Shown here: in pieces, positions 2,462 through 12,540 of the stretch
Layout of the letters: each line of letters begins with the position of its first letter
Position numbering within the stretch: position 1 is the stretch's first letter
DNA from: Escherichia coli
GTDB taxonomy: Bacteria > Pseudomonadota > Gammaproteobacteria > Enterobacterales > Enterobacteriaceae
NCBI RefSeq assembly: GCF_003018115.1
Contig: NZ_CP027457.1
Reading direction: 5' to 3' (one strand)
DNA: 64,000 nt
Notes under the pieces: model-generated
Database searches by the model: none
Seen by the model: only the letters and a program-made list of their open reading frames with translations
What the model was told of the DNA's origin: nothing
Made by a program: the position numbers and the translations under genes

Positions 2462-3418
2462 ATGCTACAAAATTGCGCACAATCAAATTGCCGCATTATT
2501 CCTAAGAAATTACGCGATATGAAACGTGAAGAGATTTGCCGCTTGCTGGCGGATAAAGTTAATAAACTGAAAAATAAAGAAAATAGTTTGTCAGAACTGT
2601 TGCCCGATGTGCGTTTGTTGTATGGCGAGACGCCTTTCGCACGTACACCGGTGATGTACGAGCCTGGCATCATAATTCTCTTTTCCGGGCATAAAATCGG
2701 TTATATCAATGAACGCGTGTTTCGTTATGATGCCAATGAATACCTGCTGCTGACGGTGCCGTTGCCGTTTGAGTGCGAAACCTATGCCACGTCAGAGGTG
2801 CCGCTGGCAGGGTTGCGTCTCAACGTCGATATTTTGCATTTACAGGAACTGTTGATGGACATTGGCGAAGATGAGCATTTCCAGCCGTCGATGGCAGCCA
2901 GCGGGATTAACTCCGCCACGTTATCAGAAGAGATTTTATGCGCGGCGGAGCGGTTACTCGACGTGATGGAGCGACCACTGGATGCGCGTATTCTCGGCAA
3001 ACAGATCATCCGCGAAATTCTGTACTACGTGCTGACCGGACCTTGCGGCGGTGCGTTACTGGCGCTGGTCAGTCGCCAGACTCACTTCAGCCTGATTAGC
3101 CGCGTGCTGAAACGGATTGAGAATAAATACACCGAAAACCTGAGCGTCGAGCAACTGGCGGCAGAAGCCAACATGAGCGTATCGGCGTTCCACCATAATT
3201 TTAAGTCTGTCACCAGCACCTCGCCGTTGCAGTATTTGAAGAATTACCGTCTGCATAAGGCGCGGATGATGATCATCCACGACGGCATGAAGGCCAGCGC
3301 GGCGGCGATGCGCGTCGGCTATGAAAGCGCATCGCAATTTAGCCGTGAGTTTAAACGTTACTTCGGTGTGACGCCGGGGGAAGATGCGGCAAGAATGCGG
3401 GCGATGCAGGGGAATTAA
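2462..3418 (+). CDS. yqhC: AraC-family transcriptional activator of yqhD-dkgA
   Basis: ORF trimmed to ATG at 2462 (MLQNCAQ...) giving 318 aa; C-terminal AraC-type HTH region; the upstream ORF extension overlaps yqhD and is rejected. Confidence 0.9.
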
Positions 3419-4256: not shown

Positions 4257-5444
4257 TTATACAATTCGCGCAAAACCGGCGTCCAGATCGGCAATCAGAT
4301 CGTCGACATCTTCCAGACCAATATGCAGGCGAATCAAGGTCCCGCTAAAATCGATCTCGCCTTGTGGGCGAATGGCGGCGATATGTTCTGGTTGATTTGC
4401 CAGGATCAACGATTCATACCCGCCCCACGAGTAGGCCATGCTGAATAAACTGAAGTTATCCAGATAGTTCGCCAGCTCTTCATCATTGAGTTTTTTCTTA
4501 AGCACAAAGGAAAATAGTCCGCTGCTGCCTGTAAAGTCTCGTTTCCAGAATTTGTGGCCTTTACTGCCAGGCAGAGCAGGGTGGTTAACTCGCGCTACTT
4601 GCGGATGTTCTGCTAGCCATTCAGCCACTTTCAGACTGCTTTCATGATGTTGACGCAAACGCACACCTAATGTGCGCAGGCCACGGCTGGTTATATAGGC
4701 GGTATCGGCATCGACCATCTGGCCCATCAGATAGGCATTTTCCCGTAGCTGCTCCCAGCAACGGGCATTGCACACGGCAGTGCCAATCATCGCATCTGAA
4801 TGCCCAACCAGATATTTGGTGGCGGCTTGAATAGAAACATCAATGCCAAAATCCAGCGCCTTAAACAGCACACCGGCTGCCCAGGTGTTGTCGATCATAA
4901 TGATGGCATCCGGCACCACACTGCGTACGGCGGCAACAATCGCCGGAACGTCGTGGACTTCCATGGTGATGGAGCCTGGCGATTCCAGAAACACGATTTT
5001 AGTGTTTGGCTGCAGATGCTTAACGATATCGGCACCAATCAGCGGATCAAACCACGATGTCGTTACGCCCAGTTTGCTGAGGATTTTGCTACAGAAATCC
5101 TGACTCGGTTCATAGGCGGTGTTGGTCATCAACACATGATCGCCCTGTTCGACAAAAGCAAGAATCGAATTAGCAACCGCTGCCGCCCCGCAGGGAAATA
5201 GCGCGCAGCCTGCGCCACCTTCCAGTTCACACATCGCTTGTTGTAAGGAAAAATGGGTTAACGTTCCGCGCCGTCCATAGAACAACTCGCCATTGGCGCG
5301 ATTGCGCGTCGCGTGCTTTTTGGCTTCCATACTCTCAAATACCAGCGAAGAAGCGCGCTGAATCACGCTATTTACCGCGCCGAGAGTGTATTTTTTGCTG
5401 CGTCCTGCATTCACCAGTTGAGTATCAAGCTTTTTGTCCGCCAT
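4257..5444 (-). CDS. metC: cystathionine beta-lyase (PLP-dependent)
   Basis: ORF trimmed to Met at 5444 ([15 protein letters not shown]...) giving 395 aa; Cys/Met-metabolism PLP enzyme family. Confidence 0.93.
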
Positions 5445-5608
5445 GTCGGGATTCCTGTTTTTATACGTCTGGATGTCTAAACTAGCATGAATATTCGCGG
5501 GCGCATCCTGAAGAATTGGCATAAAGCAGAAAATTTTCGCAAATGGCGTGCTGGTGACTTTTTTACTGCGTAAACGCAAGGAAAAGAAAGCAAAGGTACG
5601 GCAGTATG

Positions 5609-5662
5609 CAAATAGTAATGAGAACGACTATCAATTCGACGTCGTTTTGATATTATTATGCG
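5609..5662 (+). promoter_or_regulatory. putative Fur-box / promoter region upstream of exbB
   Basis: AT-rich segments aatagtaatgagaacgactatc and tgatattattatg resemble the Fur consensus GATAATGATAATCATTATC; exbBD is known to be iron-regulated. Confidence 0.3.
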
Positions 5663-5695
5663 CAGATTTTGTGACTTGCGTCCTGGAGATACACA

Positions 5696-6430
5696 GTGGG
5701 TAATAATTTAATGCAGACGGACCTTTCCGTCTGGGGTATGTATCAGCACGCCGATATTGTCGTTAAGTGCGTGATGATTGGGCTTATTTTGGCCTCCGTA
5801 GTCACCTGGGCAATCTTCTTCAGTAAGAGCGTAGAGTTCTTCAATCAGAAGCGTCGCCTTAAGCGCGAGCAGCAACTGCTGGCTGAAGCGCGTTCCTTAA
5901 ACCAGGCCAACGATATCGCCGCTGATTTTGGTAGCAAAAGCTTAAGCCTGCATTTGCTCAATGAAGCGCAGAATGAGCTGGAACTGTCAGAAGGCAGCGA
6001 CGATAACGAAGGTATTAAAGAACGTACCAGCTTCCGTCTGGAGCGTCGGGTCGCCGCAGTAGGTCGTCAAATGGGCCGCGGTAACGGCTATCTGGCAACC
6101 ATCGGCGCGATTTCGCCGTTCGTTGGTCTGTTTGGTACGGTCTGGGGCATCATGAACAGCTTTATTGGTATCGCGCAAACGCAGACTACTAACCTGGCAG
6201 TCGTTGCGCCGGGTATCGCAGAAGCTCTGTTAGCAACGGCAATCGGCCTCGTGGCAGCGATTCCTGCGGTCGTTATCTATAACGTATTCGCGCGTCAGAT
6301 TGGCGGCTTTAAAGCGATGCTGGGTGATGTCGCAGCGCAGGTATTGTTGCTGCAAAGCCGTGACCTGGATCTGGAAGCCAGCGCCGCTGCGCATCCGGTT
6401 CGTGTCGCACAAAAATTACGTGCAGGATAA
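5696..6430 (+). CDS. exbB: TonB-system energising protein ExbB
   Basis: 244-aa ORF recognised as ExbB; followed 6 nt later by exbD. Confidence 0.95.
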   Translation: MGNNLMQTDLSVWGMYQHADIVVKCVMIGLILASVVTWAIFFSKSVEFFNQKRRLKREQQLLAEARSLNQANDIAADFGSKSLSLHLLNEAQNELELSEGSDDNEGIKERTSFRLERRVAAVGRQMGRGNGYLATIGAISPFVGLFGTVWGIMNSFIGIAQTQTTNLAVVAPGIAEALLATAIGLVAAIPAVVIYNVFARQIGGFKAMLGDVAAQVLLLQSRDLDLEASAAAHPVRVAQKLRAG

Positions 6431-6436
6431 TGTCCG

Positions 6437-6862
6437 ATGGCAATGCATCTTAACGAAAACCTCGACGATAACGGCGAAATGCATGATATCAACGTGACGC
6501 CGTTTATCGACGTGATGTTGGTTCTGCTGATTATCTTTATGGTGGCGGCACCGTTAGCGACGGTAGATGTGAAGGTTAACTTGCCTGCTTCTACCAGCAC
6601 GCCGCAGCCGCGCCCGGAAAAACCGGTTTATCTGTCGGTGAAGGCAGACAACTCGATGTTTATCGGTAACGATCCGGTCACCGATGAAACAATGATTACG
6701 GCGTTGAATGCGTTAACCGAAGGCAAGAAAGACACCACCATCTTCTTCCGAGCGGATAAAACCGTCGATTACGAGACGTTGATGAAGGTAATGGATACGC
6801 TGCATCAGGCGGGTTACCTGAAGATAGGTCTGGTCGGCGAAGAAACCGCCAAAGCGAAGTAA
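6437..6862 (+). CDS. exbD: TonB-system protein ExbD
   Basis: 141-aa ORF recognised as ExbD; single N-terminal TM segment. Confidence 0.95.
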   Translation: MAMHLNENLDDNGEMHDINVTPFIDVMLVLLIIFMVAAPLATVDVKVNLPASTSTPQPRPEKPVYLSVKADNSMFIGNDPVTDETMITALNALTEGKKDTTIFFRADKTVDYETLMKVMDTLHQAGYLKIGLVGEETAKAK

Positions 6863-10945: not shown

Positions 10946-11233
10946 ATGAATAACCATTTTGGTAAAGGCTTAATGGCGGGATTAAAAGCAACGCATGCCG
11001 ACAGTGCGGTTAATGTGACAAAATTCTGTGCCGATTATAAACGCGGTTTTGTATTAGGCTACTCACATCGGATGTACGAAAAGACCGGAGATCGCCAGCT
11101 TAGCGCCTGGGAAGCGGGTATTCTGACGCGCCGCTATGGACTGGATAAAGAGATGGTAATGGATTTCTTTCGTGAGAATAATTCCTGTTCTACGTTGCGC
11201 TTTTTTATGGCCGGTTATCGCCTCGAAAATTGA
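10946..11233 (+). CDS. yghW: DUF2623-family small protein
   Basis: 95-aa ORF at the position expected for yghW upstream of hybO. Confidence 0.7.
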
Positions 11234-11421
11234 TCAAACATACGTATTATCTTGCTTTAATTAATTACACTAATGCTTCTTCCCTTCGTTTTAGCGCCCC
11301 GCCGCAGTATCATGATATCGATAACCATAATAAATGTGTGGTAAATGGCGCATCGATCGCATTATTGATTTTGCGATTGAGGCAAAATATATGCCAGGTC
11401 TTCGCAACGGAATAACTATAA
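11234..11421 (+). promoter_or_regulatory. hyb operon promoter/control region
   Basis: 188-bp AT-rich intergenic region upstream of hybO; hyb is known to be anaerobically regulated; individual sites not resolved. Confidence 0.4.
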
Positions 11422-12540
11422 ATGACTGGAGATAACACCCTCATCCATTCTCACGGCATTAACCGTCGTGATTTCATGAAGCTTTGTGCAGCATTAGCCG
11501 CCACCATGGGGTTAAGTAGCAAAGCCGCTGCAGAGATGGCCGAATCGGTTACTAACCCGCAGCGTCCGCCAGTTATCTGGATTGGCGCGCAGGAGTGCAC
11601 CGGTTGTACGGAATCTCTGCTTCGTGCAACGCATCCAACGGTAGAAAACCTCGTACTGGAGACTATCTCTCTGGAGTATCACGAAGTGCTTTCCGCCGCC
11701 TTCGGTCATCAGGTCGAAGAGAACAAACATAACGCTCTCGAGAAGTACAAAGGGCAGTATGTGTTAGTGGTGGATGGTTCCATCCCATTAAAAGATAACG
11801 GTATTTATTGCATGGTTGCCGGTGAGCCGATTGTGGATCACATCCGCAAAGCGGCGGAAGGCGCAGCAGCCATTATCGCTATCGGTTCCTGCTCTGCGTG
11901 GGGCGGTGTTGCCGCAGCTGGAGTTAACCCAACTGGCGCAGTCAGCCTGCAAGAAGTTCTGCCAGGCAAAACCGTTATCAATATTCCGGGCTGCCCGCCG
12001 AACCCGCACAACTTCCTCGCGACCGTTGCGCACATCATCACTTACGGCAAACCGCCGAAACTGGATGACAAAAACCGTCCGACCTTCGCCTATGGCCGTC
12101 TGATTCACGAACACTGCGAACGTCGCCCGCACTTCGATGCTGGTCGTTTTGCCAAAGAGTTCGGTGATGAAGGCCACCGCGAAGGCTGGTGCCTGTACCA
12201 CCTCGGCTGTAAAGGGCCAGAAACTTACGGCAATTGCTCAACGCTGCAATTCTGCGATGTTGGCGGTGTGTGGCCGGTGGCGATTGGTCACCCGTGCTAT
12301 GGCTGTAACGAAGAAGGTATCGGCTTCCATAAAGGCATCCATCAGCTTGCCAACGTCGAAAATCAGACTCCGCGTTCACAGAAACCGGATGTTAACGCTA
12401 AAGAGGGCGGCAACGTCTCTGCAGGCGCTATTGGTTTGCTCGGCGGTGTGGTTGGGCTGGTTGCCGGTGTCAGCGTGATGGCGGTGCGTGAACTGGGTCG
12501 TCAGCAAAAGAAAGATAACGCTGACTCACGGGGAGAATAA
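11422..12540 (+). CDS. hybO: hydrogenase 2 small subunit (Tat signal)
   Basis: 372 aa; twin-arginine motif RRDFMK near N-terminus; Cys-rich FeS ligand region. Confidence 0.95.

Follow-up and report, generated by a model that had tools for sequence, protein, structure and literature searches.

Two AT-rich segments lie upstream of exbB in the Escherichia coli DNA analyzed here, a 64,000-nucleotide stretch that we refer to as the window, and an earlier note on this locus had read both of them as Fur-box-like. It is textbook knowledge that the TonB-ExbB-ExbD energy transducer is under iron control; a Fur site at exbB is said to have been first proposed by Eick-Helmerich and Braun in 1989, and Ahmer et al. 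reportedly described cotranscription of exbB and exbD in 1995. The question raised by the locus is which of the two segments Fur recognizes, and what the other segment is.

The metC-exbB intergenic region

Of 5426 complete E. coli genomes, 5422 carry a match to window positions 5300-5900, at 95-100% identity, and the matched stretch is annotated with metC and exbB. MG1655 is identical to the window over 5564-5700, so results published for K-12 can be transferred directly. The segments lie within 5609-5662, in the 251-bp divergent region between metC and exbB, and are far richer in A+T than the window as a whole (mean 48%): caaatagtaatgagaacgactatcaat (5609-5635) has 70% A+T and tttgatattattat (5646-5659) has 93%. 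The 57 bp from 5604 to 5660 are identical in 4218 of 5412 E. coli genomes, and two sampled E. coli variants, G5644A in the spacer and A5658G just 3′ of the -10 hexamer described below, leave both elements untouched. The genes and the ribosome binding site are placed as follows.

5444, leftward: first base of the metC ATG, from the MG1655 map
5685-5689, + strand: Shine-Dalgarno sequence GGAGA, ending 7 nt ahead of the exbB GTG; GGAG is kept in aligned orthologues
5696-6430, + strand: exbB coding sequence, GTG start, 244 aa, from the open reading frame list and the annotation in 5422 E. coli genomes and MG1655
6437-6862, + strand: exbD coding sequence, 141 aa, the second gene 3′ of the operator, from the open reading frame list and the MG1655 annotation

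The exbB product is named ‘tol-pal system-associated acyl-CoA thioesterase’ in RefSeq/PGAP (WP_000527844.1 and relatives), in every listed non-reference record among the 5,422 matching E. coli genomes. This looks like a misapplied name, one that describes YbgC; the product here is ExbB. On the opposite side of the divergent region, roughly 140 bp from the Fur box and just upstream of the metC start codon, tandem ATACGTCT GGATGTCT occur at 5462-5477. They resemble MetJ ‘met boxes’, whose consensus is AGACGTCT, and presumably form the metC operator. A scan of 5400-5760 against Rfam at E<=1 matched no RNA family, and on this result we rejected a structured-RNA reading of the conserved blocks.

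The upstream segment is the published exbBD operator

We scored the window with a Fur weight matrix built from 16 footprinted or gel-shifted MG1655 sites at their published centres and three footprint-only regions (fepB, fur and tonB), with exbB excluded. The resulting 19-site matrix is symmetric, spans 19 columns and holds 19.8 bits of information; its training sites align as aATGAtAATnATTaTCAtt and score 8.2-28.4 bits when each is left out in turn (median 22.0). The upstream segment scores 20.2 bits at centre 5626, within this range of proven sites. That position ranks first of 63,982 in the window, where the runner-up reaches 12.8 bits and seven positions exceed 10 bits. None of 5000 dinucleotide-preserving shuffles of 5609-5662 reached 20.2 bits, and shuffling the whole intergenic region produced such a score once in 5000. 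The Fur-related elements of this segment are the following.

5617-5635, centre 5626, strand not given: core Fur box AATGAGAACGACTATCAAT, a 9-1-9 inverted repeat AATGAGAAC-G-ACTATCAAT
5605-5623, centre 5614: weak overlapping Fur-like site TATGCAAATAGTAATGAGA, 1.8 bits, 12 bp upstream of the core centre
5608-5638: conserved operator block of 31 bp, comprising the core box, an upstream (G/T)AAATAnT and a downstream TCG

The core has the architecture of an inverted repeat, with fixed arms and a central base that is G, T or C across orthologues, and its inner 7-1-7 element, TGAGAAC-G-ACTATCA, matches TGATAAT-N-ATTATCA at 11 of 14 positions. The classical 19-bp Fur consensus that the earlier note had pointed to is matched at just 13/19 over 5614-5632, and because 18 window positions reach at least 13/19, the match count does not discriminate. 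It leaves 17 equal or better matches in 64 kb, whereas the weight matrix cleanly separates the true exbB site.

The position of the box agrees with mapped data. Chen et al. (2007; NAR 35:6762, PMC2189734) placed the strongest exbB site, of 19.1 bits, at 3150076 of NC_000913.2, -70 from the start codon. With the offset between NC_000913.2 and NC_000913.3 calibrated on genes whose relative positions are given in Table 4 of that paper, this site corresponds to 3152054 in NC_000913.3 and to 5626 in the window, the very centre found with the matrix. The same study described the exbB cluster as three overlapping sites (walkers) over 31 bp, confirmed the site by gel shift at 150 nM Fur, found no Fur binding to a separate ‘Fur box’ once proposed upstream of exbD, and suggested that exbB and exbD are cotranscribed (PMC2189734).

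Fur ChIP-exo peaks have been assigned to exbB in MG1655, W3110, 042, BL21(DE3) and CFT073, and also in Sakai (Gao et al., 2023; PMC10164565). The Sakai peak, at 3892426-3892438, falls 30-42 bp inside exbB in NC_002695.2, likely through a difference in reference version, and we did not use it as evidence. Adding the length difference of about 128 bp that we assume between the versions of the Sakai record would move it to 86-98 bp upstream, as in W3110. The peaks lie 85-107 bp upstream of the exbB start codon in MG1655 and 85-97 bp upstream in W3110, which translates to window positions 5589/5599-5611 and adjoins the weak site centred at 5614. These peak calls thus sit about 20 bp upstream of the matrix centre and not on it; the yqjH peak, by contrast, sits on its own motif. 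The offset could reflect where a complex of several dimers ends on its upstream side, or simply noise in peak calling. Both exbB and exbD belong to the 36-gene core Fur regulon, and exbB changes by 1.86-5.53 log2 units upon deletion of fur across nine strains (PMC10164565). ChIP-seq in CFT073 likewise supports direct Fur binding in vivo (PMC7157518) and, together with ChIP-exo, places exbBD in the direct Fur regulon. For the binding of Fur, in vitro as well as in vivo, and for the derepression seen in fur mutants, we rely on the literature (PMC2189734, PMC10164565, PMC7157518).

What the present analysis itself shows is that the sequence matches a Fur site, that the match is statistically strong, that it coincides with the published site and that it is deeply conserved across Enterobacterales, as described below. 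The upstream block, with its core at 5617-5635, is a genuine Fur box and is the exbBD operator already known, published and experimentally confirmed. The link to iron regulation of exbBD drawn in the earlier note is therefore borne out, by one experimentally documented Fur operator inside 5609-5662.

Other Fur-like matches in the window

At least one of the 17 other 19-mer matches is likely a coding coincidence. The best classical consensus match in the window (58055-58073, 16/19; 12.2 bits in the matrix at 58067) lies inside gspG, a pseudopilin gene of a type II secretion cluster, where it encodes the conserved ...GNDYQY... motif, and is therefore probably such a coincidence. Only 3328 of 5426 E. 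coli genomes carry this cluster; the strains that match it best are of the ETEC O169:H41 type, a hint at the strain background of the window.

Two further published ChIP-exo peaks map to the window. The MG1655 peak assigned to hybO falls at about 11182-11194, provided that the region is collinear with K-12. Moderate Fur-like sites occur nearby, in the yghW 3′ end and the yghW-hybO intergenic region, with 7.8 bits at 11161, 10.5 bits at 11326 (11317-11335) and a classical consensus match of 14/19 at 11314; hybO starts at 11422. A W3110 peak labelled ‘yqhD,dkgA, intergenic’ (3153216-3153228) maps to approximately 3108-3120, some 2.58 kb upstream of exbB, which on the MG1655 gene map would place it inside yqhC and not between yqhC and yqhD.

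The operator block is conserved across Enterobacterales

A scan for ExbB with one genome per species yielded 80 loci, 67 from Enterobacterales and 13 from Pseudomonas, and column statistics were anchored on the Fur box in the 67 distinct Enterobacterales sequences. The box is present in all 67, at 18.3-25.0 bits. Conservation falls into two sharp islands, 5608-5638 and 5646-5656, amid otherwise unconserved DNA. Over 5608-5637 the columns carry 1.1-2.0 bits of information, except at 5615, 5622, 5625 and 5626, and the flanks carry approximately 0.1-0.5 bits. Of these four positions, 5615 and the central 5626 take any base, while 5622 (G or T) and 5625 (C or T) have only the E. coli base or T, the base of the Fur consensus; the rest of the box arms is invariant.

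The operator begins slightly upstream of a single 19-mer, with a core at 5617-5635 and a conserved footprint of 5608-5638. Two overlapping Fur dimers set 6 bp apart would fit the 31-bp block; the classical 19-mer register here is 5614-5632. At this offset of -6, which takes in the upstream AAATAnT, a second site scores as high as 18.1 bits in other genera and -2.7 bits in E. coli; it matches both the model of two overlapping dimers and the 31-bp cluster of Chen et al. Some of the conservation is not explained by Fur binding alone: all 67 loci have C at 5628, a base that fits neither the Fur consensus nor that of the -35 hexamer, and the TCG at 5636-5638, which borders the 19-mer, is retained at 69-90%.

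In Pectobacterium, Brenneria, Dickeya, Rahnella, Serratia, Yersinia, Providencia, Xenorhabdus, Photorhabdus and Arsenophonus, the module formed by the Fur box and the downstream -10 block is found 283-579 bp before the ExbB region alignable with E. coli (loci L047-L049, L052, L053, L061-L067, L069, L071-L078 and L080-L082). This spacing is consistent with a long N-terminal ExbB extension, as described for Serratia (PMC9008036). The distance from Fur box to downstream promoter block is unchanged at these loci, and the module is conserved regardless. In Pseudomonas, a Fur-like 19-mer, AACAAGAATTACTTGCAAT or variants of it, occurs at 13 of 13 loci (L083-L095), 326-472 bp upstream of the ExbB match; these copies score 11.7-15.6 bits with the E. 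coli matrix, and in most of them, as in the enterobacterial box, the central base is followed by AC and not by AT.

The downstream segment is most likely an extended -10 element

The second AT-rich segment gave a different result: it fails the weight-matrix scoring by which the earlier note had proposed that its own reading be checked and, if scores were low, refuted. The best score within 5646-5662 is 0.6 bits (centre 5655), a chance-level value that 1409 of 5000 shuffles (28%) reached and that 175 window positions equal or exceed, and the segment matches the 7-1-7 consensus at 8 of 14 positions. In the 67 Enterobacterales loci, no conserved Fur-like score was found at +15 to +44 from the Fur centre, where the best score has a median of -3.0, with eight loci above 0 and one above 5. 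Columns 5657-5662, which would form the remainder of a second 19-mer, carry less than 0.4 bits and are unconserved.

What is conserved in this island is the column pattern T-T-T-G-n-T-A-T-n-A-T over 5646-5656. All 67 loci contain TGnTAnnnT, with the T at -12, the A at -11 and the T at -7 that would be expected of a -10 element; it lies at +22 from the Fur centre in 61 loci and at +24 in six. Given this fixed position, the unconserved columns 5657-5662 and the median downstream Fur score of -3.0, the island is best read as an extended -10, most likely that of the exbB promoter. Of the two Fur-like segments claimed earlier, both are found where they had been placed, but only the first is a Fur box; the conservation of the second follows TGnTATnAT, an extended -10 pattern. 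The promoter elements would be arranged as follows.

5648-5656, + strand: probable extended -10 element, TG at 5648-5649, one free base and TATTAT at 5651-5656
5628-5633, + strand: putative weak -35 CTATCA, read from the sequence, 3/6 against TTGACA, with a 17-bp spacer and inside the Fur box
5663-5666, + strand: predicted transcription start, 7-10 nt after the -10 hexamer, placed from the -10 position alone

Scanning 5400-5760 for promoters and terminators with a generic method that requires 4/6 or better in each promoter hexamer gave no hit; it returned no sigma-70 promoter because the -35 is poor, its -35 requirement excluding extended -10 promoters. The supplements of Kim 2012, Conway 2014, Ettwiller 2016 and Beauchene 2015 hold no usable entry for an exbB transcription start.

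A model for iron control of exbBD

We consider it very probable that 5609-5662 comprises the exbBD operator and promoter, with Fur on 5617-5635, the -10 at 5648-5656 and polymerase excluded by Fe2+-Fur; the -10 and -35 assignments, the start and the occlusion mechanism are what we infer from the layout of the region. Fe2+-loaded Fur would bind the 9-1-9 inverted repeat at 5617-5635, and a second overlapping dimer probably extends the contact upstream to about 5608. The Fur box ends 12 bp before the conserved TG and 15 bp before the -10 hexamer, and with a start at about 5663 the Fur core would span approximately -46 to -28. Because the core would then cover the weak -35 region, bound Fur would deny RNA polymerase access to the promoter. 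In iron-replete cells, Fe2+-Fur would thus block polymerase; under iron scarcity, Fur would leave and exbBD transcription would rise.

Alternative readings of the two segments

That the AT-rich segments resemble Fur sites by chance and have no regulatory role is vanishingly unlikely: the mediocre classical consensus count of 13/19, a level met by 18 window positions, would fit such a reading, but it is contradicted by the published binding data, from gel shift and ChIP, and the matrix score, the shuffle tests, the expression of fur mutants and the order-wide invariance likewise speak against it. A reading in which both segments are Fur boxes, with Fur covering the -35 and the -10 through two sites or by spreading, is also very unlikely. 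At high concentration, Fur can spread outward from a strong site over AT-rich DNA, and the second segment does open with TGATATT, a good half-site (6/7), and scores marginally above zero. Yet that score is commonplace among shuffles and in the window, a positive score is seen downstream of the box in only eight of the 67 loci, and the conserved columns spell TG-n-TAT-n-AT and stop short of 5657-5662. In addition, the matrix sites at 5614 and 5626 together span 5605-5635, the 31 bp of the Chen cluster, so the second segment probably lies outside that cluster.

It is less easily dismissed, though still unlikely, that Fur is not the only constraint on the 31-bp block, which would also serve as promoter DNA (the -35 and a UP-like tract, AAATA) or as a binding site for a second regulator; either would be compatible with Fur binding. 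This would explain the frozen non-consensus bases, in that C5628, TCG 5636-5638 and AAATA 5610-5614 carry 0.7-2.0 bits that the Fur matrix does not demand; the block would span about -55 to -25 of the predicted promoter, and the ChIP-exo peak calls have their centres upstream of the Fur core. Against it, variation within the box is limited to the choice between E. coli base and Fur consensus (5622 G/T, 5625 C/T), the free positions 5615 and 5626 are those left uncontacted by a dimer pair offset by 6 bp, and in other genera the upstream AAATAnT itself gives a strong second site for Fur, of up to 18.1 bits. In an informal comparison with the CpxR, Zur, MntR, IscR and NikR motifs, none fitted the conserved block and no other regulator’s motif was recognized. 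A broader version, in which the block 5608-5656 is frozen across Enterobacterales because it is read by more than Fur and polymerase, through a second regulator or a tuned, sub-maximal Fur affinity, seems to us quite unlikely; if true, the tuned affinity would guarantee basal ExbBD for uptake of vitamin B12 and other TonB-dependent uptake.

With the single Fur operator and its adjoining extended -10 as the preferred reading, the result matters little beyond correct annotation. What it usefully adds is the exact boundaries of the operator, core 5617-5635 and footprint 5608-5638, and the reassignment of the second ‘Fur-like’ stretch to an extended -10.

Comparison with known systems

The closest known system is the K-12 exbB Fur cluster itself (PMC2189734), which is the same DNA, with no difference in the core and a published score of 19.1 bits against 20.2 here. 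Beyond the published cluster, the present analysis shows the downstream AT-rich segment to lie outside the operator and the 31-bp block to be near-invariant across Enterobacterales.

The tonB promoter also carries a Fur operator (Young and Postle, 1994, as cited in PMC4676285), whose footprint is listed in Table 3 of PMC2189734. TonB is the partner of ExbB in the same energy-transducing complex and is likewise Fur-repressed, but its site is much weaker than that of exbB in the same matrix, scoring 8.2 bits when left out and 11.7 bits when included. In the 1994 work of Young and Postle, the tonB site reportedly overlaps the promoter, between the -35 and the -10, and an extra anaerobic control is said to act upstream.

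The classical 19-bp Fur box, GATAATGATAATCATTATC, has been reinterpreted as two overlapping 7-1-7 or 9-1-9 sites (Baichoo and Helmann; Chen et al., PMC2189734). As in that box, the exbB register 5614-5632 holds inverted repeats centred at 5620 and 5626, with the expected 6-bp offset; unlike it, the exbB sequence matches at just 13/19, and one of its two sites is strong (5626, 20.2 bits) and the other poor (5620, -2.7 bits). The downstream element, for its part, resembles the extended -10 class of sigma-70 promoters (TGnTATAAT), which usually have a poor -35. The exbB TG-a-TATTAT matches seven of the eight specified bases (TG and 5/6 of the hexamer) and would likewise be paired with a poor -35.
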